Assembly: GCA_963851445.1 (NCBI GenBank)
Contig: CAWKPH010000001.1
Coordinates: 61,813-125,812 of the forward strand
Source: an uncultured bacterium
Lineage (GTDB): Bacteria > Patescibacteriota > Minisyncoccia > Phycocordibacterales > Phycocordibacteraceae
Reading direction: 5' to 3'
Length of the DNA: 64,000 bases
Part shown: positions 7,875-62,989 of the stretch, piece by piece
How the letters are laid out: every line of letters starts with the position of its first letter
Position numbering within the stretch: the stretch's first letter is position 1
Position numbers and translations under genes: made by a program
The notes under the pieces: model-generated
Database searches by the model: none
What the model was told of the DNA's origin: nothing
The model's input: the letters and a program-made list of their open reading frames with translations, nothing else

Positions 7875-7944
7875 AGCATTATCCGTTACTTATTTCTTCC
7901 AAAATATCACCGCATTCATGAAGTGTCGATGAGCATGCAATTAC

Positions 7945-7984
7945 AAAACCCTACGCCCTTCGAGGCGTAGGGTTTTGTGTCTTT
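7945..7984. terminator. Rho-independent terminator hairpin (AAAACCCTACGCC-CTTCGAG-GCGTAGGGTTTT) with T-run
   Basis: Perfect 12-bp stem followed by a U-run, located downstream of the DsbA-like gene on the minus strand; the structure is symmetric. Confidence 0.55.
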
Positions 7985-7992
7985 ACTTCGAA

Positions 7993-8748
7993 CTATTTAT
8001 TCAACTGCGCGTCAATGAGTGCCGAAACTGTCTGATATGTCTGGGCTCCCTGGAGTAGGGTGGTGCCAATAAGCACACTTGGCGTGCCTTGGATACCATA
8101 GCTCTGTCCTTCAGAAAAATCAGCTTGAACCGTGTTGTCATACTGAGTTTTGTTTGCAGCAACCTCTGCCACAACTGAATTTACATTGATGCCGGGGATG
8201 GTAGCAAGAATCTTTTGAATCGCAGCAGCGTCGGCCCATCCGCCATTCTCTGTACCTTGTGAAGCATACATAGTCGTATACCAGGTGTAGAAATCTTGCG
8301 GATAGAGTGTCCAAACAGCGCGAGCATATTCAGAAGCAGTCTCTGAATCAGGGCCAATAAAATCGAAATCTTTGAAGACAATCTTCAATTTGTGAGTCTG
8401 CACGTAATTCGTGTAGAGCTGCGGCAAAACGGTTTGATCGAATTGTTTGCAGAACGGACATTGGTAGTCGAAGAAAAGCGCCATCGTTACAGGTGCATTC
8501 GCGTCTCCAATGTAGGGTTCGCCTGCAGTTTTTACGTTCGCGATATTAACCGCTACGGCTCCTGGAGTTGTACTTGTCGCCGTCGCTTGTGTGCCAGATG
8601 AGGAACGGTTTGTAAGACCAAAATAAATCGCTCCTGCCACAAGTACAAAGCCAATGAGAACGACTATGACAGTACCGTATCGGTCGAACCAAATGGGACT
8701 ATCGCTACCAATTGTTATGTGTTGAGAATTCTTTGTGTTTTCATCCAT
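7993..8748 (-). CDS. DsbA-family thiol:disulfide oxidoreductase (membrane-anchored, CPFC active site)
   Basis: 251 aa ORF with an N-terminal TM and a thioredoxin-fold CPFC motif (…FFDYQCPFCKQF…). Confidence 0.8.
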   Translation of the reverse strand: MDENTKNSQHITIGSDSPIWFDRYGTVIVVLIGFVLVAGAIYFGLTNRSSSGTQATATSTTPGAVAVNIANVKTAGEPYIGDANAPVTMALFFDYQCPFCKQFDQTVLPQLYTNYVQTHKLKIVFKDFDFIGPDSETASEYARAVWTLYPQDFYTWYTTMYASQGTENGGWADAAAIQKILATIPGINVNSVVAEVAANKTQYDNTVQADFSEGQSYGIQGTPSVLIGTTLLQGAQTYQTVSALIDAQLNK

Positions 8749-19603: not shown

Positions 19604-21445
19604 CTAATGCGATGCAATGAACGCAATGGTCGATGGTCCGAGAACGCCTGTGCCCACAGAAAGATTGAATGGTGCAAGTATGTTTGTGGTGTGAGCTTCC
19701 TGGAATTTGACAAGTGCGTTAAAAGTGAGCGTGCCAAAATAATCGGTTTCTTGTCCTGGAGAACCTGTGCCTGCGGCGGCAATTGTAAAGCCATGGGAAT
19801 TGAGATACTGCTGAAGTGCCATCACGTCGCTACCCTCCATGCCACGTTCTAGATAACGCTTGAAGGCAACACTTGTAGCAGAGGTTGAGCTACCGACTTC
19901 TGCCACCGGTGGAGCAGCGATTGATGGAACAACGACCGGAAGCGAGGAGGAGGCAACGGGTGGGAAAAGATTTGGCCACTCTGTTTCAAGTGCCTGAGCT
20001 GCCTTTGTATTACCCGTGCTATTAAGATACGTTACTTGTGAAGTTACCGAACCGCCGCCCGAAACGCCTTCGTCGTTTGGTGCAATCGTATCAATGACAT
20101 AGTTAGCGGAAGTCGAAGGTGAAATTACACCGGTGATCTTGGTTACGCTGTCTCCTCCAGAAATCTCGTTGTTATTATTATTTGCGGTCCACATGTTCGT
20201 ACCGTCGAAGGCAATTTCAGCAGGACTGAAACCGACACCGGTGTATGTGACCATCGTGCCGTTAGGGGCAATCTCAGTGACAGCACCTTCCTCAGTACCG
20301 GGAACACCAAAATCAGTCACCCACATATTTGTGCCGTCGAAGGCGATACCATTGGGGCCGTCGCCAGTGCCAGTATATGTGGTTATCGCACCGGATGGGG
20401 TTATCTTCGAGACACTCTTGCTGTTGTTTTCAAAATCAAAGTATGGTGCGGGGCTGAAGCCACCGTAGTTGGCAGTCCACATATTTGTGCCGTCGAAGGC
20501 GATGCCGATGGGTCCAAGCCCAGTCCCTGAATAGCTTGTTGAGGTGCCTGTTGGAGATATTTTTGTAACACTGTCGCCGCTGCCGGTATCGTTACTGCCA
20601 TAGTTAGCGGTCCACATATTTGTGCCGTCGAAGGCGATGGATTGGGGTCCCGGAGTCGTGGTGGCGGTGAGGAGTACAGCGCTCGTAGAAGCAATTTCGG
20701 TGACGATACCTGGAGAGACGCCGTCAACGTAACTTGATACCCACATATTTGTGCCATCGAAGGCGATGTCGTCTGGAGCTTGCGCTACGGTAATGGGAGA
20801 ACCGATGATAGAACCATTTAAACCAAGCTCTCTTACTGTGGTACCGTTGCCTGATCCTACACCGAGAGGACCTCCATAATTTGTTACCCACAGGTGCGTG
20901 CCGTCGAAGGCGATGCCGGAAGGACCATCGAAGCCGCTGTATGCGGTGACGGTGCCGCTTGGAGTGATCTTGTCTACGTCGTCGTTATTCCCATTCGTTA
21001 CCCACATGTTCGTACCATCAAAGGCGATGCCGTAGGGCTGGTTAAAGCTCGGGTCTTTATAGGTCGTGCCTATCACTTTCCCTTTTACACTAATTACATT
21101 TGTTCCTGCACTCGTGTTTGCACTCGGAGTGAACGTCGCTGTATAGACGTCGGGGTTTGTGGTGGATGCAAGATTCGTGAGGATGCCGTTTGTCGCTGAT
21201 GTATCGCTAGCAGTAAAGTCGAGCGGCGCTGCTGGGAAGGTAAAGGTAACGGTCGCAGTTTGACCGACGCCCAAATTAGAATTGCTGATCGTAATAGTCG
21301 GTCCTGCAAGTGGAGCAGGCATGGATCCCGAAGTCGTAAGCGGAAGTATGCCATTAAAAGAAGCAAACGCAGACAAAGGGAGCATAAACGAAAGTGCGAG
21401 CATAATGACCGCACCCAAGGTATGAGGCCGATAGATTGTTTTCAT
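19604..21445 (-). CDS. Secreted beta-propeller repeat protein (NHL/Vgb-lyase-like IAFDGTNMW repeats) with Ig-like N-domain and C-terminal peptidoglycan-binding (PG_binding_1) domain
   Basis: 613 aa ORF with a signal peptide, about eight repeats of P.GIAFDGTNMWV(T/A)N…SVTKI(T/S)P at ~50-aa spacing, and a C-terminal …VMALQQYLNSHGF…GTLTFNALVKFQEAH domain. Confidence 0.6.
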   Translation of the reverse strand: MKTIYRPHTLGAVIMLALSFMLPLSAFASFNGILPLTTSGSMPAPLAGPTITISNSNLGVGQTATVTFTFPAAPLDFTASDTSATNGILTNLASTTNPDVYTATFTPSANTSAGTNVISVKGKVIGTTYKDPSFNQPYGIAFDGTNMWVTNGNNDDVDKITPSGTVTAYSGFDGPSGIAFDGTHLWVTNYGGPLGVGSGNGTTVRELGLNGSIIGSPITVAQAPDDIAFDGTNMWVSSYVDGVSPGIVTEIASTSAVLLTATTTPGPQSIAFDGTNMWTANYGSNDTGSGDSVTKISPTGTSTSYSGTGLGPIGIAFDGTNMWTANYGGFSPAPYFDFENNSKSVSKITPSGAITTYTGTGDGPNGIAFDGTNMWVTDFGVPGTEEGAVTEIAPNGTMVTYTGVGFSPAEIAFDGTNMWTANNNNNEISGGDSVTKITGVISPSTSANYVIDTIAPNDEGVSGGGSVTSQVTYLNSTGNTKAAQALETEWPNLFPPVASSSLPVVVPSIAAPPVAEVGSSTSATSVAFKRYLERGMEGSDVMALQQYLNSHGFTIAAAGTGSPGQETDYFGTLTFNALVKFQEAHTTNILAPFNLSVGTGVLGPSTIAFIASH

Positions 21446-48625: not shown

Positions 48626-48725
48626 AAACTTTGTCTAGGAATATATAGCAAGTGTAGTTAATTTTTTAAGCTATGTAAAGCGAGCTTTACATAGGTTGTG
48701 GATGACTTCCAATTCACTTTTTAAG

Positions 48726-50523: not shown

Positions 50524-50693
50524 ACGAGTGATCGTTAATAGTACCTCTAAATTCTAGCACTCTTATGTAAGCTAAAGTCGATGTTGCGAACAATCCGCCA
50601 TAAAAGCCCATTTCATTGGTCTTTTATAAACCTGGGCTCTCAAGAATACTGTTGGAACCTAGCTTGAGAAACTCGGCAAAGAGAGGCCTTGTA

Positions 50694-51887
50694 TTAGCTT
50701 TCTATAACGACCGCTGCCGTCGTGAAGGTGCTTGGGAGTGTTTCTAAGTTAGAGTACGCAGTTGAATCTGAAGGACCGTATTGAATATGATCAAGTGTTG
50801 CGTAGTAAAACTGACCTCCTCCTCCTACTTTCGAAGCTGTCACAGTAAGACTTTCGGTTTGGCCAGCCGGAATGAGGAAATTGCCGTCTGCAGTTCGAGA
50901 AGCAGTTGAGGAAACAGCTTCCGCTGTTGGGACGCTTGACGTACCTGTTCCCGAGCTATGAATAACTGGTTCGAAACCCGCCGGACCACCATAAACATAC
51001 AGAGTTTCCCCGCCTGCCGTCACATTAAAGGTAAAGGTGAAATTGCCAGTTTGTGTGGTGACACCAGATCCGTTGTTGACTACCGTCACGGCGGTGGTCG
51101 GTGTACCAACGGTCAAAGCGTTGCTTGTTATGCCAGCTCCACTTGTCGTAAGTGTACCCACTGTAAGCAGATTAGACTGAGAATCATAAGTAAGAACAGT
51201 GTAGGTTCCAGCTTTAAGAGCACCGAAGTTGGCGGACCAGTTTGTACCCGATATTGTTTCTGCTGCTGCAACTGCTGGTCCGTCTCCCTTGAGAAGCTGA
51301 CTTACTGTACCCCAATCCGTACTGCCCTTGTAATTTGGTCCTACAATCACAACTTGTGTTGGTAGGGACACTATGCCGCTCAGTGTAAAGGGTGTATTTG
51401 GTGCTGGGTGAAGACTACTCTCAGTTATCGACTCGGAGGAAGAGATGTTTTGTGTGACGCTGCATGTAGCTGTCACACCTAATGCTCCATGAAACACAAG
51501 TGTGTACGTCTTAGAGTATGGTGCTGACAATCCACTCGAGGTCCATGAGGATGTGGACTGACCATTTGCTGGTAAGTTTCCTTTACCACCTAGCAATCCA
51601 CTTGCCTCGGTCATGTAGAGGGCATTTGTGCTGCTCCAGGTAATTGTAGATTGCTGATCCGGCATGACCGATGTTGCGCTTAACGTAACATGGCATGTAG
51701 GCTTGACAGCAGCTACTGGAGGAGAAGAGATTGCGGTTACTGCAGCTGCTTGTAACGAATTAACTTGTGTAAGCAACGCTTGTAGTTCGGTCTCAAGATT
51801 GCTTATGGTGTCCGCATGGGCAAATGGCGCGATAAAGAAAAAGGCAAGGAAAACCGCTACGCCACTAAAGGCTAGTTTCTTAGTCAT
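50694..51887 (-). CDS. Secreted hypothetical protein (signal peptide, N-terminal coiled coil, beta-rich Ser/Thr/Gly-rich body)
   Basis: 397 aa ORF with a signal peptide. No family assigned. Confidence 0.45.
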   Translation of the reverse strand: MTKKLAFSGVAVFLAFFFIAPFAHADTISNLETELQALLTQVNSLQAAAVTAISSPPVAAVKPTCHVTLSATSVMPDQQSTITWSSTNALYMTEASGLLGGKGNLPANGQSTSSWTSSGLSAPYSKTYTLVFHGALGVTATCSVTQNISSSESITESSLHPAPNTPFTLSGIVSLPTQVVIVGPNYKGSTDWGTVSQLLKGDGPAVAAAETISGTNWSANFGALKAGTYTVLTYDSQSNLLTVGTLTTSGAGITSNALTVGTPTTAVTVVNNGSGVTTQTGNFTFTFNVTAGGETLYVYGGPAGFEPVIHSSGTGTSSVPTAEAVSSTASRTADGNFLIPAGQTESLTVTASKVGGGGQFYYATLDHIQYGPSDSTAYSNLETLPSTFTTAAVVIES

Positions 51888-52005
51888 ACGAGCTGAAAGT
51901 GAATATGTTTAATACCTTAAGAATACACTGACTTCTACTCAGCGTATTGGGAGATGGGGATAGTTACGATGGAATCAATAGACATCCCGCACACATGCCT
52001 CATGC

Positions 52006-52063
52006 GAAGCTTGTATTTACGTATCCAAACGACCCGTACTCTTGTGGGCGCTGTTGGAACCAG
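52006..52063 (+). repeat. Intact copy (X) of a ~58-nt repeated element: A-part (GAAGCTTGTATTTAC…TCCAAACGA) plus B-part (CGCTGTTGGAACCAG)
   Basis: A-part is ~80% identical over ~45 nt to 56931..56975. B-part 15-mer is identical to 57546..57560. Order and orientation are the same. Confidence 0.5.
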
Positions 52064-52082
52064 AGTCGTTAGGGATTTTTAA

Positions 52083-55000
52083 TCAGTTTTCCTCTGTAGC
52101 AAACTGTGCCTTCACGGCCTTGCCCGGCCAGCGTGTATAGATTATCGGGATGAGGAGGAGTGTCAGCAACAGTGAAAAAGCGAGACCGAACATAATAGTG
52201 AACGCGAGCGGACCCCACTCCGGTGAGACAAGGGAAAGAGGAATCATGCCAATGACTGTGGTGATGGTCGTAAGTAGAATCGGTCGTAGTCGTATCGATG
52301 CCGCCTGTACAACAACTTCATCTAGTGTCCGCCCCCCGTGTTCCCTACCGATACGGGAAATAGAGTCCATGAGTATGATCGCGTGATTTATGATGACACC
52401 CGCAAGCGCAACGATACCGAGCATCGCTGGAAATGAGAGGGTGGAGTTCGTAATGAATAGGCCCGCAAAGACACCAGTAAGCGAGAGAGGGACGATGAGT
52501 AGTAAATACAGGGACTGCCTGAATGAATTAAACTCCAGGACCAAGATGGCGAGCATGAGTACGAGTCCGGCAATGAAAGCGATAACGACATCACTGAACG
52601 AATTTGCGATGCTCTGCGCATCTCCCTGTACGTTGATCGTAACGCCGGTAGGAATCTGCGAGGCAAATTTCTTTTCGAACTCTTGGGTGATTTGTGTCGC
52701 GTTACCTGTATTGGTCACGTCGGATGAAAGCGTTACGTCACGGTTGCCGTTGTCATGATCGATCTCCGTCTGGGACGGCTGATACGAAACCGTAGCTATC
52801 GACGAAAGTGGCACGGGGCCATTCGCGCTAGGAACCGTAAGAGCCTCAATGGCATCAATCGTCGTGTTCGTCGTCTGGCTTGGATCAGTATAGTTTGGAT
52901 TAAGTGCGATCTTCACATACACATCGATCTGGTTCGTGCCTGATTCAAGCGACGTCGCTTCGGTCCCATAGAGCGCAGAACGGAGCGTGCCCGCCACCAC
53001 AGTTGGCGAAATACCGAGATTCGCGGCTTCAGCTGCATTCAGCGTGATATCAAATTCTGAGCTGTCATTCTTTGTACTGGTGGTGACATTCGTTGTGCCT
53101 GGAATCTGTGCCAGTACCTGAGCACCCTTTTCCACAGTTTCGGTAAGTAGTGCGGTATCAGTGCCCTCGAATTCAATCGATACAGGCGCGCTGGTTGAGG
53201 GTCCAGAAACTGGTCCTGATACGGTAACGTCGGCATCTTTTACCGGTGCCAGCTCCGTACGAAGATCCTCAATATATTTATTACTATCTTCATGGCCTGA
53301 TTTGAGGGTGACGGTTATATTGGCCACCTGGCTTCCCGAGGATCCGCCGCCAGTAAATGCGCTGCCCTGTCCCACACTCGTCACAAAATTCGCGATCCGC
53401 TTGTCGTTATAGAGAATCTCTTCCACCTCGCGCGTCGCAAGGTCGGTGGTGCTAAGCACGGTTCCCACCGGTTCTTCAATCTGTACATAAACCGAATCTG
53501 TAGAACTCGCTGGAAAGAAATCAACTTTTATTAATCCTAGTACAGGGAACATCATTGCGATGACAAAGAGAATACCCATTGTCCAGAGGAAGCGGTTCTG
53601 GAATGTGCGGTCGTGAAGCACGTTCGACAAGAACTTCACATACCACGTCTTTATGCGATGCATGATGCGCTCCTGATTACTTTCTTTTATATGCCTTTTT
53701 GGCGGCTTCACGAAAAAGGTCGCAAGGAGTGGCACCATACCGAGTGCAACACAGATGGAAGCAAGGAGTACGAAAATGATAGTGAACGGAATACTTTGAA
53801 TGAACTTGCCTACAATGCCGCTTAGAAAAAGAAGCGGCACGAATACCGCAATAGTAGCGCAGGTACCAGCGAAGAGTGGCAAGGCGTAATCATGGAGCGC
53901 CTCGACCGCCGCGTTGAAGCGATTTTCTCCAGCTTCAATATGTGTATGAATGGCTTCGACGACCACGATACCTGAATCTACGAGAATACCTATGGCGAGA
54001 ATAAGAGCGAACAATGAAATGAAGTTCAGTGTGTTGCCTGAAAAATCCAAGCCGATGAACGCTATAAGAAACGAGAGAGGAATTGAGGCGGCCGCCACGA
54101 CCGCTTCACGCCATCCGAGTGTGAGAAGGAGAATAACGATTACAAGCGCTACCGTTTCGAGACCTGCTTGGGTCAGTTCGGATAGATCCTGGTCGACGAG
54201 CATCGAGCCGTCACTCGTGATAACGACTTGTGTGCCTGAGAGTGTGGTCTTCTGGAGCGTAGCAATCTCTTTTTTTACTGCTGTTCCAACCGTATCTATG
54301 TTACTGTCGGTACTTTTGTAAACAGAGAGCGTGAGCGCTGGTTGAGAAGGATGACCGCCTACCGATACACGCGAGTACGTCGTGGGGTCCTCAAGACCAT
54401 CGACGACATTTGCTACTTCGCCTACCGTTACCGTTGCTCCCGAAGGCGTCGTGAACGACACGTTCGCTACGTCTTCAGGAGTTGCGACACTTGCATCGAG
54501 TCTTACGTCGTAGGAAACACCGCTAACAGTGATAGAGCCTTCGGGCGATGCAAGACTCGCAGCAGAAATGGCGCTCGTGATGTCTGAGATGCTAATCCCA
54601 TATTGCTGTAGTGCCGACTGCTGAACAATCACTTGTACCTCGCGAGGCTGGACCCCGGTGAGATCGACGGTAGCAACGCCTGACACGCGTTCTAAATCGG
54701 TTTGTACTTCCTGCCCAAGTTCAGTAAGCTCTCCCGGTGCTAGATCCCCTGAAACGGAAGCAACGATGACGGGCTGGTTTGTGAAGTTTACCTGTGTTAC
54801 GGTAGGCGTTTTCGCCTCCGCGGGGAGCTCGCTCTGAAGCTGGTTTACTTCATTCTGAAGCGATTGGATAGACTGATTGACATCAGCATTTGCATCAAAC
54901 TGTACTTCGATGGTGGAAACACCGTCTACAGATGATGAGGTGACTTCCGATACATTCGAAAGTCCAAGCACACCGTTTTCAATCTTATTCGTTACGAGCT

Positions 55001-55184
55001 GCTCGACATCACTTGCCGATGCACCAGGAAGAATAGTTGTTACGATACCGATCGGAATCGAGATGGCTGGAGAGGCTTCCTTGGGTATGGTTAAAACTGC
55101 ATAGAGGCCCGAGAATACAAGCGCAATCATCAAGAGCACCGTGAAATGTTCTCTTTTCAGGAAGAATTTCCAAAATCCGGTCAT
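52083..55184 (-). CDS. RND superfamily efflux transporter permease (AcrB/HAE-like, 12 TM)
   Basis: 1033 aa ORF with AcrB-like domain order and conserved TM4 and TM10 regions. Confidence 0.9.
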   Translation of the reverse strand: MTGFWKFFLKREHFTVLLMIALVFSGLYAVLTIPKEASPAISIPIGIVTTILPGASASDVEQLVTNKIENGVLGLSNVSEVTSSSVDGVSTIEVQFDANADVNQSIQSLQNEVNQLQSELPAEAKTPTVTQVNFTNQPVIVASVSGDLAPGELTELGQEVQTDLERVSGVATVDLTGVQPREVQVIVQQSALQQYGISISDITSAISAASLASPEGSITVSGVSYDVRLDASVATPEDVANVSFTTPSGATVTVGEVANVVDGLEDPTTYSRVSVGGHPSQPALTLSVYKSTDSNIDTVGTAVKKEIATLQKTTLSGTQVVITSDGSMLVDQDLSELTQAGLETVALVIVILLLTLGWREAVVAAASIPLSFLIAFIGLDFSGNTLNFISLFALILAIGILVDSGIVVVEAIHTHIEAGENRFNAAVEALHDYALPLFAGTCATIAVFVPLLFLSGIVGKFIQSIPFTIIFVLLASICVALGMVPLLATFFVKPPKRHIKESNQERIMHRIKTWYVKFLSNVLHDRTFQNRFLWTMGILFVIAMMFPVLGLIKVDFFPASSTDSVYVQIEEPVGTVLSTTDLATREVEEILYNDKRIANFVTSVGQGSAFTGGGSSGSQVANITVTLKSGHEDSNKYIEDLRTELAPVKDADVTVSGPVSGPSTSAPVSIEFEGTDTALLTETVEKGAQVLAQIPGTTNVTTSTKNDSSEFDITLNAAEAANLGISPTVVAGTLRSALYGTEATSLESGTNQIDVYVKIALNPNYTDPSQTTNTTIDAIEALTVPSANGPVPLSSIATVSYQPSQTEIDHDNGNRDVTLSSDVTNTGNATQITQEFEKKFASQIPTGVTINVQGDAQSIANSFSDVVIAFIAGLVLMLAILVLEFNSFRQSLYLLLIVPLSLTGVFAGLFITNSTLSFPAMLGIVALAGVIINHAIILMDSISRIGREHGGRTLDEVVVQAASIRLRPILLTTITTVIGMIPLSLVSPEWGPLAFTIMFGLAFSLLLTLLLIPIIYTRWPGKAVKAQFATEEN

Positions 55185-55187
55185 GAG

Positions 55188-56843
55188 CTATTGGCTAGCT
55201 GCACTGGCACCTGTGTTGCCACTTGTGGGAGAACTCGATGCTACAAGCACGGCGTCTCCTGCTGAGAGACCGCGCGCATCCGTGACTATTTCAAGGTTGG
55301 CGGGAAGCGCCGTTGTTATTTGTATAAGATCGCCTATGACCTGACCAATCTGCACCGCATGTGCGACGAGATGTCCGGTCGAATCAACGGTAAAGACATC
55401 TCGCTCATTCGGAAGGAGTTTTACCGCGGTGAGAGGGACTTCAATATTCGGAGTTGTGGATGCTATTCCTTGAGTCGAAGTCGCTACGGTAGTAGCGGAG
55501 GTGGGCAGTGGCGGAAGTGCTACTTGCACGGACTGCCCATTCACAAGGTCTGCACCTGCGTTCACCGCAACCTCGACTTCAATTTGTTCTGTCGTGGGAT
55601 CGAGCGCTGGTGCAATGGTTGTCACCACGCCACTGTAGGAATTGTCGATAGTAAGCGTATCGCCTATCATCAAACGATTTGCATCTTGCTGCGAGAGCTC
55701 TAGGATTACTTGAAGCGCATTATTTTGAGCAACAGTTGCGACATGTTGATCAAGGCTTACATAATTCCCAACGGTAATCGGAAGATAATTAACCGTACCC
55801 GCAAATGGTGCACGTATGATGGTCTTTTCATAAGCAGCCTGCGCAGCGCGTAGTCCCCCAAGCGCTTCTTCAACGCTCGCCTGCGAACTGGTAACTCCTG
55901 CACCAGAAGAATCATTAGTGCTTTGTGTTTGACCGACTGCTGCTGCAGTGACACTTGCGTTATAGGACGTTTGAGCATTTGTTACACCTGCCTGTAATGT
56001 GCTAACAGTACTTTGTGCCGCGGCAAGACCAGCAAGTTGTGCAGCGGTTGCGCCCGATCCCTGCATGCTCGCAAGCGTCGTTAGACTCGTGAGGAAGGAC
56101 GCAATCGTTGTTAGATTGCTTTGCGCTGTTGAAAGGAGTGTCAACGGATCGGTCGTGTTGGCGGTTGCGAGGCTTGCCTGCCAATTCTGCATAAGAACCA
56201 TGATGTTTGCGTCCTCGCGCGAAAATGTGTAGTTGGTGTTAAGTGTGTTGATAAGCAATTCCGGTCCTACCGGCGTATTATTACCAAAAAGTGTGCTTAC
56301 ATCTGTCGCGAGCACATCCTGTAAACTTGTGTACGTTGATTGATAGGTGTTGCGTGCCGATGTCTGTGCCTGTGCAAGCGAGACTGTTGAGTTTTGGGAT
56401 TGTAGCGACGTCGCGTGTTCTGCAGCAACCGCTGCATCGTATGCCCCTTGCGCCTGTAATACCGCAGCATCTGCTGCAGATCCATCAAGACTCGCAATGA
56501 CGAATCCCGCGGGAACCGTTGCACCGAGTGTCGTATTGACGGCTTCGACCGTTCCTGCCGATTGTGCAAGAATATTTGCCTCGCTTACTGACTGAACCGT
56601 TCCGGTAACGAAAACACCGTCAGTACTCTCATTAAAGGAATCAAGACTCGCAAGTGTTACCGTCGGCACTGAGCCAGAAGCTGTAGCGGGCTTGGTAATA
56701 TGGGCGAGTGCGAGTCCTCCACCTATGATGATAAGAACTATTACGCCGATAATGATTTGTGTACGGCGCGAAAATGAAGAAAACTTTTTCCAAAGTTTTG
56801 TAAAAAAAGCGCCAACCCGCGCGACTGCGGAGGATAGATTCAT
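55188..56843 (-). CDS. Efflux RND periplasmic adaptor subunit (membrane fusion protein) with long coiled coil
   Basis: 551 aa ORF with an N-terminal TM, extended Ala/Gln/Thr-rich coiled coil, lipoyl and beta-barrel regions. A 3-nt gap to the permease indicates an operon. Confidence 0.8.
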   Translation of the reverse strand: MNLSSAVARVGAFFTKLWKKFSSFSRRTQIIIGVIVLIIIGGGLALAHITKPATASGSVPTVTLASLDSFNESTDGVFVTGTVQSVSEANILAQSAGTVEAVNTTLGATVPAGFVIASLDGSAADAAVLQAQGAYDAAVAAEHATSLQSQNSTVSLAQAQTSARNTYQSTYTSLQDVLATDVSTLFGNNTPVGPELLINTLNTNYTFSREDANIMVLMQNWQASLATANTTDPLTLLSTAQSNLTTIASFLTSLTTLASMQGSGATAAQLAGLAAAQSTVSTLQAGVTNAQTSYNASVTAAAVGQTQSTNDSSGAGVTSSQASVEEALGGLRAAQAAYEKTIIRAPFAGTVNYLPITVGNYVSLDQHVATVAQNNALQVILELSQQDANRLMIGDTLTIDNSYSGVVTTIAPALDPTTEQIEVEVAVNAGADLVNGQSVQVALPPLPTSATTVATSTQGIASTTPNIEVPLTAVKLLPNERDVFTVDSTGHLVAHAVQIGQVIGDLIQITTALPANLEIVTDARGLSAGDAVLVASSSPTSGNTGASAASQ

Positions 56844-56887
56844 GCCAGAAAAGCTTGTATCGAGTTTCGGGGGGCACTCATAGTCGA

Positions 56888-56916
56888 ATTATAGCATTTT
56901 AGACACTAGTTTCTAA
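56888..56916 (-). promoter_or_regulatory. Candidate promoter of the RND operon (minus strand: -35 TTAGAA, 17-nt spacer, -10 TATAAT)
   Basis: Consensus -10 lies about 45 nt upstream of the adaptor ATG. Confidence 0.35.
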
Positions 56917-56936
56917 CGTTCCTTAGGTCGCCATAC

Positions 56937-56964
56937 GAGCTTGTATTTACTTCTCCAAAACCGA
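56937..56964 (+). repeat. A-part copy (Y) of the repeated element
   Basis: GAGCTTGTATTTACTTCTCCAAAACCGA versus X GAAGCTTGTATTTACGTATCCAAACGA. Confidence 0.45.
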
Positions 56965-57015
56965 TGCGCGTCTTAGCGGATACTATCCGCAGTAAATGAA
57001 ATAGCGGCTGAAGTT

Positions 57016-57366
57016 TTACCTCCGGCCGCTGCGCTTTTTGTTCCTTTGGAAATGCTTGGGGAAACGATCTTTCTTCTGCTGGTTGCACTTGCCGCACGCA
57101 ACCACCATATTCTCGATATCGAATTCCGAACCCCCTTTTGAGACTGGAATCCTATGATCTACCGTGGCCCTGTGAGATCGCCTTGCTGCTGCGAGCTGGC
57201 GTTCGCGGGTTGAACGCGGATTCTTCTCAATCTCCACAGCCAGATAAACATCGTGACGGCAATAATGACAAATCTTTCCATCCCGCTCGATAAGGAGCGG
57301 AAGGAAGTACGCGGTATCTCCCGCAGTCCATTCTCGAGGCAACGTAAGTCTCCCATGCCAAGTCAA
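57016..57366 (-). CDS. HNH endonuclease family protein (small, free-standing; TTG start inferred)
   Basis: 116 aa ORF with the HNH motif CHYCRHDV…VDHRIPVSKGGSEFDIENMVVACGKCNQQK. It lies in the ~560-bp segment separating the Y and Z repeat halves. Confidence 0.7.
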   Translation of the reverse strand: MTWHGRLTLPREWTAGDTAYFLPLLIERDGKICHYCRHDVYLAVEIEKNPRSTRERQLAAARRSHRATVDHRIPVSKGGSEFDIENMVVACGKCNQQKKDRFPKHFQRNKKRSGRR

Positions 57367-57545
57367 AGATTAAAAAAGATCAGCCATTTGCTCGGCTCTT
57401 CCTCATCTCATCTAGTAGATGAAAGAACTCCTCCCTCAGACAGTCATCTGTCTTGCTAGGAACGACGAGTGCAATAACAATGTTCTAAGCTAAGACACAA
57501 ATACACTGAAAAGTGCATCTTGTCAATTTTGCGCAGCCTCGTAGA

Positions 57546-57560
57546 CGCTGTTGGAACCAG
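57546..57560 (+). repeat. B-part copy (Z) of the repeated element (CGCTGTTGGAACCAG)
   Basis: Exact 15-mer match to X 52049..52063 in the same orientation. Confidence 0.4.
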
Positions 57561-57708
57561 CTTAAAATCTGCATCCTAGGAGTTTGTATTATCGGGTTTA
57601 TTCTGCACTCTTCCTCTGTGGCCGTGAGAATCCCCATGAATTGCTCTACGTATTAATCTTTCTTCGGTTTCCCTTGCAATCTTGGGATGCGGTGTATGGT
57701 CCTTTAAT

Positions 57709-58092
57709 TCAAGGTTGTCTCGAAAGAGTTCCGTCTTCTACAGAAGCTTTACTAGATTCAGCCCCAGCTTCCCTATGTCGATCCTCATATGGGATGCGGC
57801 CATTACGTGTAGCGCTCGAAGCGTAATTTGCAGCGTCGGCTATTTGTCGATCATATAAGGTCTCTCCTGGATCCATGTCATATGTGGGAGTCTTATCAAA
57901 ACCGTTGCCATAAGCATAAGAATGACGCTCTTCGTCAATTGAACTTTCAGAATCCAGCTCAGATATTTCCTGTATATCCTGCAGCCTTAGTCCTTCTTCT
58001 GTCGTAGCAGGGTCAGGCACTTCTTCAATGGGTATGAATTTCTTTTTCTTCGGAGCTTCGCCGCCCTCTGACCAGCCACTTTCAAATTGCAT
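57709..58092 (-). CDS. Hypothetical acidic low-complexity protein
   Basis: 127 aa Glu/Asp/Ser-rich ORF. Coding status is uncertain. Confidence 0.3.
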   Translation of the reverse strand: MQFESGWSEGGEAPKKKKFIPIEEVPDPATTEEGLRLQDIQEISELDSESSIDEERHSYAYGNGFDKTPTYDMDPGETLYDRQIADAANYASSATRNGRIPYEDRHREAGAESSKASVEDGTLSRQP

Positions 58093-58116
58093 GTTGTTGG
58101 AACTAAGATGCGGCTA

Positions 58117-59226
58117 TTACTGAGAAGTCACTGTAAATGACACGCTACTTGATTTCAAATTGGTAGAGGTGTACGGGCCTTGAGTTAAAAAGATTTCATA
58201 ATTGCCAGGCTGTAGAGGAAAAGTGGTTCCAGCACAGTCCCCGCCAGGAGCTGGTGCGGTTGCTTCATCTATATCACATGAGAATTCTGAGGGTGGGATG
58301 GTAAATGTCATTTGTGTTCCCGCAGAATTAATCAATATTCCTCCATATCCTGGCGTAAAAGTATATCCACCAAAATGTAATATGGTGGTGCTTGAAAATC
58401 CGCTGCCATTTAGAGTTAGATCTGTACCTATTGGGCCCGCGGAGGGGATCACCGAGCTCAATATCGGTACAGTCTGTCCGTTATAGGGAGTATTTGGTAT
58501 TACACTTTGCGGAGTATCTACACGTATTGTTGCAGTACCTGCCGAAACAGCGTTCAGTGTGTATATTTCCCCACCGACAAATTGGGGTTCATTAAGCACA
58601 AGTGTTGCCGGTGCTGTTACTGCAGGACTAAAACCTGATGATGTTCCAGAGTATTCCGTCACAACTGTTATCTGTGCGGTATTGTTTACTGTGTTTGTCT
58701 GATCAAGGGTGAAGACCGTTACCATTCCTACGGACGTATTTTGTGTCGCACTTTCTCCAGATGTAAGAGTGACAGATCCTGGCACTGTCATCGTGACGCT
58801 TCCAGTAGAACTTGGTGGTGTTGCTGGTGAAGTGGTACATGGTTCACCTGTCGTAGAACTGAAGGCTGCTCCTGGAAGACATCCCGTCACGGTTGGTGTG
58901 CCGGGACTATATACTGCCAACAGAGCGTTTGCTGAGGCGCGGGTGATTGGACCGAAGTAACCAACTGCTGGTGAAATACCGTTAGCCTGTTGATAGGCTA
59001 CAACTGCTGCTTGAGTTTCGGTACCGAAGTAACCGGTTGCTCCAGCGGGAATTGAGTACCCCTTAGAAATGAGCCAAGTCTGAAGTGCTGTTACATCAGA
59101 TCCAGTTGAACCTGTGGTGAGATTAGTGCTGAAAGTCGTGCTCGTCATTACTGAAGTTGTTTGGGCAAATACCAGAGCAGGGAGAATCAGGGTCGATACA
59201 AGGAGCGCAATTATTGCTTTTTTCAT
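58117..59226 (-). CDS. Secreted protein with N-terminal peptidoglycan-binding (PG_binding_1) domain and IPT/Ig-like beta domains
   Basis: 369 aa ORF with a signal peptide, then GSDVTALQTWLISKGYSIPAGATGYFGTETQAAVVAYQQANGI and a Thr/Ser-rich beta-rich body. Confidence 0.55.
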   Translation of the reverse strand: MKKAIIALLVSTLILPALVFAQTTSVMTSTTFSTNLTTGSTGSDVTALQTWLISKGYSIPAGATGYFGTETQAAVVAYQQANGISPAVGYFGPITRASANALLAVYSPGTPTVTGCLPGAAFSSTTGEPCTTSPATPPSSTGSVTMTVPGSVTLTSGESATQNTSVGMVTVFTLDQTNTVNNTAQITVVTEYSGTSSGFSPAVTAPATLVLNEPQFVGGEIYTLNAVSAGTATIRVDTPQSVIPNTPYNGQTVPILSSVIPSAGPIGTDLTLNGSGFSSTTILHFGGYTFTPGYGGILINSAGTQMTFTIPPSEFSCDIDEATAPAPGGDCAGTTFPLQPGNYEIFLTQGPYTSTNLKSSSVSFTVTSQ

Positions 59227-59382
59227 AAGAGCGACGGTGAAAGAATGTTAATAAAGTAACTATATCACCCCAACACATATTTATTTAGAAGCTGTAGATA
59301 GTAACGATCGAATTAGTTCAGAGGTCCGTAGACCAATTCATACGGACTTGCATTACTTATCAAAAACTAATGCGCGGTCGAC

Positions 59383-59456
59383 GGGACTTGAACCCGCAGC
59401 CTCGTCCGTGACAGGGACGCGATCTAACCAATTGATCTACGACCGCAGTATTGCGA
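59383..59456 (-). tRNA. tRNA-Asp (anticodon GUC), CCA not encoded
   Basis: Acceptor GCGGTCG/CGACCGC, D-arm GATC-AATTGGTTA-GATC, anticodon stem CGTCC/GGACG with loop CTGTCAC, T-arm GCGGG-TTCAAGT-CCCGT. Confidence 0.85.
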
Positions 59457-59726: not shown

Positions 59727-59738
59727 AGTGTCGAGGGT

Positions 59739-59812
59739 GGGAGTTGAACCCACGACCTTCTCTTTATGAGTGAGATGCTCTAACCAACTGAGCTACCCCG
59801 ACAGTAGCTTTA
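59739..59812 (-). tRNA. tRNA-Met/Ile2-type (anticodon CAU), CCA not encoded
   Basis: Acceptor GTCGGGG/CCTCGAC (one G·U), D-arm GCTC-AGTTGGTTA-GAGC, anticodon loop CTCATAA, T-arm GTGGG-TTCAACT-CCCAC. Has an A31·A39 mismatch. Confidence 0.7.
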
Positions 59813-62882: not shown

Positions 62883-62911
62883 TCACCTCAGGGTTCTAGT
62901 GAACTAGAATA

Positions 62912-62944
62912 AAGCGACCTGGAGATTCTCTCCAGGTCGCTTTA
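62912..62944. terminator. Bidirectional terminator hairpin (AAAGCGACCTGGAGA-TTCT-CTCCAGGTCGCTTT) between convergent genes
   Basis: A 13-bp perfect stem flanked by A-run and T-run. Confidence 0.6.
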
Positions 62945-62989
62945 TGTAAATCATATTCGAGCCTCTCACATAGATCTTTACGTGGAAAA

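Follow-up and report, generated by a model that had tools for sequence, protein, structure and literature searches.

A small gene for an HNH endonuclease lies upstream of an operon for a membrane-fusion protein (MFP) and an RND efflux permease in the DNA analyzed here, a stretch of 64,000 nucleotides (hereafter the window) from contig CAWKPH010000001.1 of an uncultured Patescibacteriota bacterium (GCA_963851445.1). The interpretation that we favor, albeit by modest confidence, is that this is a free-standing, homing-type selfish gene that occupies one copy of a duplicated intergenic sequence, the second copy of which lies uninterrupted at the other end of the same operon. That the two intergenic sequences are homologous, and that the segment with the HNH gene is an insertion or deletion between them, seems to us very probable from the alignments described below. 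Furthermore, a related gene in another Patescibacteria genome provides an occupied and an empty copy of a different element in a much better state of preservation.

The interrupted and uninterrupted copies of the repeat

The genes around the HNH locus are all on the minus strand. The features that bear directly on the repeat are as follows.

52001-52100, minus strand: element X, the uninterrupted repeat copy, ~100 nt, with blocks C, B and A contiguous
57538-57622, minus strand: Z arm of the interrupted copy, upstream of the HNH gene, with blocks C (57622-57611) and B (57560-57538)
56932-56973, minus strand: Y arm of the interrupted copy, with block A (56959-56932) and up to ~14 nt of weak linker homology
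56974-57537, minus strand: segment in the Z-Y copy that is absent from X, ~565 bp with boundaries good to +/-10 nt, containing the HNH open reading frame (ORF)
57016-57366, minus strand: HNH ORF in its longest form
57016-57342, minus strand: HNH endonuclease gene, likely product 108 aa, with a TTG start and GGGAG before the start
52083-56843, minus strand: MFP-RND efflux operon, with one repeat copy on each side
55188-56843, minus strand: HlyD-type MFP gene, in an operon with the RND permease gene
52083-55184, minus strand: AcrB-type RND permease gene, in an operon with the MFP gene

Two blocks of similarity connect X to the sequences on either side of the HNH gene. Block A pairs positions 52008-52029 with 56938-56959 (20/22, ungapped) and can be extended to 52001-52029 against 56932-56959, where 25 of 29 positions agree with one gap (86%). 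Block B pairs 52041-52063 with 57538-57560 (20/23) and includes an exact 15-mer, CGCTGTTGGAACCAG, at 52049-52063 and 57546-57560. The order and orientation of the blocks are the same in both copies. Read along the minus strand, X runs from block C (52100-52089) through B (52063-52041) and an 11-nt linker to A (52029-52001), whereas B and A of the interrupted copy stand 572 nt apart around the HNH gene. No further copy of A or B is present in the window at up to 2-3 mismatches. An earlier reading of this DNA from its letters and ORFs (the sequence-only reading) had described such a two-part repeat, and both matches hold on realignment, including the exact 15-mer at 57546-57560. The A match, however, covers about 29 nt at 86% identity rather than the ~45 nt at ~80% that had been proposed, and its position is 5 nt further left than had been stated.

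The repeat is also longer than the ~58 nt originally ascribed to it. A third colinear block, C, pairs 52089-52100 with 57611-57622, overlaps the final five codons and the stop codon of the RND gene, and is significant independently (p~0.003). The broader region at 52064-52100 resembles 57561-57622 with a z score of 3.4 (3 of 1000 shuffles were as good; core GCYACAGAGGAA). Because homology reaches past B into the end of the RND gene, the repeat unit is ~100 nt, not 58. Downstream of block A, no similarity is left. In a split alignment, X switches from homology with Z to homology with Y between 52044 and 52034, and the boundaries of the intervening segment are thereby defined to within 10 nt.

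Since the A and B matches are individually at chance level, the evidence for homology rests on the geometry of the colinear chain. We counted as a chain two colinear same-strand matches that are at most 100 nt apart in one copy and at most 1000 nt apart in the other, and none arose in 400 second-order Markov simulations of the window. A control on real sequence, in which the same test was applied to 561 kb of Patescibacteria loci, returned a single chain, which is in the second HNH locus discussed below (L034). When the window is queried with X alone, its top two matches are A and B (E=0.004 and 0.014), and a global alignment of X against Z plus Y, with the insert removed, gives z=10.4 (0/1000 shuffles).

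Within the ~565-bp segment, HNH is the sole gene, and it is transcribed in the direction of the operon. The ORF is preceded by 195 nt of the segment and followed by ~42 nt that include a 15-nt palindrome, GCGGATACTATCCGC (56976-56990). The sequence-only reading had given the gene its own TTGACA-type promoter. A TTGACA is indeed present (57526-57521), but it is 180 nt upstream of the HNH start, its partner at 17 nt is TATTTG, and a consensus scan called no promoter. A terminator-like hairpin with a T-run (57397-57382) lies between this hexamer and the start codon. No other copy of the HNH gene or of the segment exists in the window. The MFP promoter (-35 at 56915, -10 ending at 56888) lies directly downstream of the Y arm.

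Several other identities for the repeat were considered and rejected. Z is not a remnant of a second RND gene, since tblastn comparison of the RND and MFP proteins, and of a 397-aa protein encoded downstream of X, with positions 56844-59300 gave only low-complexity noise. Nor do A and B pair as a hairpin that has the HNH gene in its loop: complementarity between the flanks in the window is at chance, and neither X nor a possible third copy (W, described below) folds better than its shuffles. The three B copies yielded no consensus structure. Block A is not a conserved operator of the MFP operon, given its absence from the 126 upstream nt available for a relative with an 83%-identical MFP (L048). 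Finally, the repeat does not resemble miniature inverted-repeat transposable elements (MITE) or repetitive extragenic palindromic (REP) sequences, because there are only 2-3 copies in the 64 kb searched, all within 7 kb, and because inverted termini, a target-site duplication and a significant fold are all missing from it.

The HNH gene and an occupied hairpin in another genome

The HNH ORF scores 39.0 bits against the Pfam family HNH (PF01844; cut-off 21.4) and 39.2 bits against HNH_5 (PF14279; cut-off 27.5), and many PHROG HNH families match it, the best at 2.4e-13. In an alignment of 11 members of its family (A5), the window protein has the full catalytic and zinc-binding set, with C25xxC28, D61-H62, N78 and C83xxC86-N87. 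With profile scores above both thresholds and with the D-H, N and N residues and both CxxC pairs in place, the product is, by its sequence, a bona fide HNH domain protein. The ORF at 57016-57366 exists as previously reported. Its start, however, was probably set too far upstream; the ATG starts of homologues align with an internal TTG at 57342, so the product is likely 108 aa. The claim that this endonuclease gene is free-standing is well supported. A search of 56840-57720 against Rfam gives no family at E<=1, and group I introns are likewise missing from the Rfam results for the window and for eight related loci. There is no detectable ribozyme core, and the flanks are intergenic, with no interrupted host gene. 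The predicted 108-aa protein is complete, and its gene is free-standing, outside any intron or intein.

A database of 5.8 billion sequences yielded 10 homologues, which are 101-109 aa long and 59-71% identical to the window protein, and the family amounts to 10 clusters at 90% identity. A profile search of 1.84 billion representatives at 50% identity recovered a single cluster and, besides it, a 199-aa relative, both near E=1e-30; P0001 alone was counted at <=1e-30, P0131 reached 1.3e-30, and the remainder were no better than 1e-13. Scans with the HNH alignment found only 3 loci among metagenomes and no match among viral contigs. The sequence-only reading had suggested a comparison with phage homing endonucleases, which disclosed similarity at the level of the domain only: small phage HNH proteins are 31-36% identical to the window protein, and PHROG HNH families match at 1e-13 or weaker. 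A structurally characterized entry annotated as 'HNH endonuclease' (PDB 4H9D, 112 aa) matches the family profile marginally (E=0.005). It has a size and a beta-beta-alpha-metal core similar to those of the window protein, but from so marginal a sequence match no function is inferable. Across the family, no conserved non-coding cassette ends were found, as DNA homology stops at the ORF borders.

A public contig identical to window positions 52533-57730 (L055; Logan ERR11630394) carries gene calls for the MFP and RND proteins only, and the HNH ORF, with its TTG start, is uncalled. Because of this omission from public annotation, the window's own HNH protein is missing from exact look-ups and from the homologue search.

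The clearest counterpart of the window arrangement is L034 (NCBI JAUYOM010000169, GCA_030695865.1), a Patescibacteria metagenome-assembled genome (MAG) that carries an HNH homologue of 63% identity (P0010; 8001-8306). A 167-nt upstream element at 2619-2785 in this locus recurs as two arms, 7908-7982 and 8315-8398, that are identical at 75/75 and 81/84 positions. The insert between the arms is 332 nt and consists of a Shine-Dalgarno sequence and the HNH ORF, with almost nothing more. The empty copy, with 8 nt at the same place, reads ...ATATCTGCCACGGCAGGTAT..., and the occupied copy reads ...ATATCTACAG, then the HNH insert, then CTGTAGGTAT.... The fold of the uninterrupted copy is a 30-bp hairpin (-42.4 kcal/mol, z=-9.4), and it is at the tip of this hairpin that the HNH gene is located. 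The closing pairs of the two copies differ and yet stay complementary (CTGCC/GGCAG vs CTACAG/CTGTAG), a compensatory pattern. In this locus, a gene was able to lodge in a hairpin tip while compensatory changes preserved the stem. Since the genes downstream of the two element copies are only distant paralogues, a recent copying event or gene conversion accounts for the element being 97-100% identical.

The architecture of L034 is the one that the sequence-only reading proposed for the window, in a far fresher state. As an independent occupied and empty pair, it is the strongest support for this interpretation and makes a common cause for the weak window pattern more likely beforehand. There are differences between the two cases. 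Their host elements are unrelated in sequence, and the two downstream genes in the window share no homology, unlike those in L034. Moreover, the occupied and unoccupied copies in L034 form a clear pair, with arms 97-100% identical, whereas the empty site in the window is the diverged paralogue X rather than an allele. A scan for a 20-mer from the left arm of the L034 element gave no match.

We also compared the letters at the junctions (window 57538-57546 and 56960-56965; L034 7977-7984 and 8311-8316). At the upstream junction, TCTAC(R)(R)GG is shared by the two occupied copies, which also have CGGT immediately ahead of the downstream arm; the equivalent position in each empty copy reads CCAC...CGG. 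These shared letters, with matches of only 4-5 nt, may represent a cassette end or a target preference.

Neighborhoods of the HNH family and of the efflux operon

Additional features of the window are listed here.

50649-50665, minus strand: W, a possible third copy of the repeat, with block B only (AAGCTAGGTTCCAACAG)
50694-51887, minus strand: gene for a 397-aa secreted protein without a family match, downstream of X and between X and W
57709-58092, minus strand: 127-aa ORF
58117-59226, minus strand: peptidoglycan-binding protein gene
59372-59446, minus strand: tRNA-Asp(GTC), 2 kb upstream of the HNH gene and on the same strand
59728-59802, minus strand: tRNA-Met

The neighboring genes of the HNH homologues with 59-71% identity differ in every locus, and there is nonetheless a recurring tRNA context in this very small family. 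In four loci (the window, L040, L041/L045-47 and L043/44), tRNA-Asp precedes the HNH gene by 1.2-2 kb on the same strand, and in two others (L033 and L035) the HNH gene lies 1.5-4.6 kb downstream of tRNA-Asn, again on the same strand. These tRNA genes are intact and uninterrupted. Both the genes between the tRNA and the HNH gene and those beyond differ each time. Next to or overlapping the tRNA-Asn gene in L033 (3016-3453) and L035 (6194-6508) is a small ORF (79-83 aa) with a GIY-YIG domain, in a region that shows 81% DNA identity between the two genomes.

L043 is of particular relevance to the arrangement of tRNA sequences near these genes. A complete tRNA-Asp (152-227) is followed there by a perfect 52-nt copy of its 3' part (310-361). 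A third tRNA-like copy (1401-1527), with a ~59-nt interruption in its T-loop region, comes after a Beta-lactamase2-family gene. The HNH gene begins 69 nt after this last copy, and no integrase is encoded on the 2-kb contig. The copies of the tRNA-Asp 3' part around the beta-lactamase-like gene demonstrate that repeat-bounded cargo modules exist in the neighborhood of this HNH family.

Relatives of the efflux operon have other genes at the place where the window has HNH (MFP identities of 78% for L049/L050, 73% for L051/L052 and 65% for L053/L054). A ~195-aa protein of unknown family is encoded upstream of the MFP gene in the 73% and 65% relatives (L051 2487-3068, L053 8911-9913), with a MarR-type regulator further upstream in L053, and an unrelated partial ORF takes this position in the 78% relatives. 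The window lacks both the ~195-aa protein and the regulator, and the HNH segment occupies their place. The 126 nt upstream of the MFP gene on the L048 contig, which keep the -10 region, are too short to show which gene precedes it. At 65-83% MFP identity, these relatives have diverged too far for a comparison of non-coding DNA. The protein database holds the window's own genome and MFP relatives at <=83% identity. Among GTDB species representatives, the closest MFPs come exclusively from Patescibacteria MAGs and reach at most 48% identity. Looking up the exact RND and HNH protein sequences, in search of a strain-level relative, returned no match.

No integrase, recombinase, transposase or phage gene is encoded between 40 and 64 kb of the window. 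The strongest self-BLAST matches in the window come from direct repeats at 20160-21035, with units of ~135-145 nt that are 80-96% identical, which is probably a repetitive coding region. Self-BLAST also reveals near-perfect palindromes of 30-38 nt at 62909-62945, 7943-7978 and 48668-48697, which are likely terminators between convergent or adjacent genes.

Competing explanations, known systems and significance

Two diverged direct copies of a ~100-nt intergenic sequence (C-B-A) flank the MFP-RND operon, and the most probable history is that a small selfish HNH gene of the homing type entered one copy, or was later lost from the other. The nuclease would cut or nick its cognate unoccupied site, and recombinational repair would then use the occupied copy as a template, with the flanking repeat giving the homology. 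Gain at Z-Y and loss at X are both within the known life cycle of homing genes, and the proposed mechanism is the textbook one for homing endonuclease genes, without a new type of system. Homing itself is inferred, as are DNA cleavage, target specificity, the direction of gain or loss and the current activity of the nuclease. The sequence-only reading had likewise proposed that a homing-type HNH cassette inserted into one copy of the repeat, and the split geometry and the L034 architecture agree with that proposal. Also in its favor are the differing gene neighbors of the HNH homologues, albeit with the shared tRNA context, and the other genes that precede MFP in the relatives at 65-78% identity.

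A number of observations weigh against this interpretation. When the whole window is compared with itself by BLAST, E is ~1 for the A match and ~12 for the B match, values that are at chance level for single matches in 64 kb. The arms are short and diverged, with ~86-87% identity over 23-29 nt, which also makes the event look old. Neither a target-site duplication, for which the sequence-only reading had recommended a search, nor a terminal inverted repeat was found for the ~565-bp segment. The window HNH gene also has no flanking hairpin or inverted repeat above chance level; only L034 has one. No allele with an empty site was found at the window locus, and an uninterrupted second copy in related genomes was likewise sought without success: the only other public contig with the MFP gene is L055, which is 100% identical to the window. 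If the possible copy W is genuine, B can exist without A. W (core at 50649-50659) could equally be due to chance, and its presence leaves junctions of att-like modules as a live rival. Additional reservations concern the family. It comprises essentially one 50% cluster, which is unlike a rampant mobile gene, and the position of the four closest loci (the window, L040, L041 and L043) after tRNA-Asp suggests long vertical residence rather than recent arrival. The HNH motif residues are conserved in the A5 family except in P0002 (L033) and P0003, where S-R replaces D-H and the His is lost. These two proteins are probably inactive nucleases. Such a loss fits the decay of a selfish gene.

Among the alternatives, the one we take most seriously, although we consider it rather unlikely, is that the repeats are att-like (attachment-site-like) junction scars, left as gene modules inserted into a variable region that follows tRNA-Met and tRNA-Asp. 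The HNH gene would then be a hotspot resident or module cargo instead of having inserted into an element already there. In this scenario, copies of the B core at Z, X and W delimit two modules, one with HNH and MFP-RND and the other with the 397-aa gene. Direct repeats of ~100 nt do bracket exactly the 4.8-kb MFP-RND unit, with the end of the RND frame inside the repeat; att-like repeats that bound the RND module were the alternative that the sequence-only reading itself had offered. The 11-nt core GGTTCCAACAG occurs in three exact copies on the same strand, all intergenic and in a span of 7 kb, and is otherwise absent from the 64 kb. Gene content between tRNA-Asp and HNH, and downstream of HNH, is different in every relative; MFP-RND pairs occur in different contexts among relatives; and in L043 a beta-lactamase-like gene does lie between copies of a tRNA-Asp 3' part, with HNH right after the last. 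Working against such module junctions are the lack of any integrase, recombinase or transposase in 40-64 kb and the fact that the repeats do not derive from the neighboring tRNAs, so that the repeat is not identical to a tRNA gene end as it would be in an integrative island. In addition, the contiguity of B and A in X, compared with their separation at Z-Y, would need an added gain or loss of HNH, which is the homing-type explanation again.

The evidence from W is ambiguous. Its core, at 50649-50659 on the same strand, is identical to that of X and Z, and AAGCT is a further match between W and Z, but W lacks an A part. W begins 29 nt downstream of the stop codon of the 397-aa gene, its core lies 35 nt downstream of that stop, and the whole (AAGCTAGGTTCCAACAG) is within a 7-bp inverted repeat, TCTCAAG...CTTGAGA, that is not energetically significant. 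If W is real, then Z, X and W delimit two modules. As an 11-mer plus 5 nt, it is possibly a chance match, given that ~0.15 extra copies of some 11-mer of the shared 15-mer are expected per window.

A derivation of the repeats from tRNA-Asp or tRNA-Met att sites was examined and rejected, because similarity to X, Y and Z is not significant save for one 11-mer. This 11-mer, ACGAGGCTGCG, is common to the Z junction (57532-57542) and to the variable loop and T-stem of tRNA-Asp (59395-59405), and in Z it is positioned exactly where homology to X stops. The match may be due to chance, as 3 of 300 shuffles scored as well, and it was found in 1 of 12 comparisons.

It is improbable, in our judgment, that A and B are separate short functional motifs of adjoining transcription units, with B near gene 3' ends and A upstream of promoters, which are adjacent in the short X spacer and distant at Z-Y simply because a gene is between them. 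The positions are suggestive: B follows the stops of the RND and 397-aa genes by 20-35 nt, A precedes the promoter-like sequences of the MFP and 397-aa genes by ~20-60 nt, and W has B without A. Yet neither motif is found elsewhere among ~60 genes of the window, L048 retains the -10 region while lacking A in its 126 upstream nt, B has no consensus hairpin or stable fold, and the homology also spans block C and the linker, beyond two discrete motifs. Very improbable indeed is a coincidental resemblance with no repeated element at all. The weak self-BLAST scores and the existence in the window of other exact repeats of 15-18 nt without evident meaning would fit a coincidence, but the absence of a colinear chain from every simulated window, the return of only the L034 HNH case from real Patescibacteria loci, and the independent significance of the third colinear block do not.

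The homing-type interpretation has clear precedents. Free-standing HNH homing endonuclease genes are known from T-even and other phages, for example mobE of T4, in what has been termed 'intronless homing' (PMC2790892, PMC2988022). Like the window gene, these are small HNH ORFs that stand alone in intergenic positions without an intron or intein. A further likeness would be their presence or absence in otherwise homologous sequences, and the spread proposed for them is by a break at the unoccupied site followed by gene conversion. However, the host of the window gene is the chromosome of an uncultured Parcubacteria (Paceibacterota) organism rather than a phage, its occupied and empty sites are paralogous copies in one genome, and its product is a bare 108-aa HNH/zinc-finger core without a recognizable DNA-binding extension. 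As noted, it is also only distantly similar to the phage proteins.

A second point of comparison is from the same phylum. In Patescibacteria, tRNA-Asp and tRNA-Asn are reported hosts of group I introns, and HNH endonuclease genes reside in group I introns at position 35/36 of tRNA-Asn, with four tRNA-Asn introns encoding such enzymes (PMC13011429). The window family belongs to the same nuclease superfamily and is likewise found near tRNA-Asp and tRNA-Asn, and the L034 ORF protrudes from a hairpin tip in the way that the ORFs of introns loop out of peripheral stems. In contrast, the window has no intron, its adjoining tRNAs are intact, and the host elements, at 100-170 nt, are too small for a ribozyme.

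Two further systems relate to the modular setting. In phages, nuclease genes bound exchanged blocks of DNA as homing endonuclease gene (HEG) islands (PMC10448857). The window resembles these in having a nuclease gene at the edge of a gene module (MFP-RND) whose neighbors vary among relatives, but it has a single flanking nuclease gene, no high-identity exchanged block was detected, and the genome is cellular. As with the att repeats of tRNA-linked islands, direct repeats enclose a module of genes, which lies a few kb downstream of tRNA genes, and L043 has true tRNA-Asp 3' repeats around a cargo gene. The window differs from such islands in that it has no integrase, its repeats have no significant similarity to tRNA, and one repeat is interrupted. 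An ambitious extension, which we regard as doubtful, is that the Patescibacteria HNH family might cut in or near conserved tRNA-Asp and tRNA-Asn genes, or in nearby repeats, and so drive gene conversion that carries neighboring cargo between genomes. The cargo would be the RND pump in the window, and a beta-lactamase-like gene, a glyoxalase and others elsewhere, in what would be a cellular counterpart of the phage HEG islands.

If the homing-type interpretation is correct, it would document a free-standing HNH gene of this kind in the reduced chromosomes of candidate-phyla-radiation bacteria, with two pairs of occupied and empty sites, of which the L034 pair is fresh enough to give a base-exact insertion point. 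The analysis also flags the variable region downstream of tRNA-Asp and tRNA-Asn, in which accessory genes, including those for an RND efflux pump, turn over. Most of the interest attaches to the clean L034 site and to this tRNA-linked variable region, and the linkage of an intron-less HNH family to intact tRNA-Asp and tRNA-Asn genes is a lead worth following.

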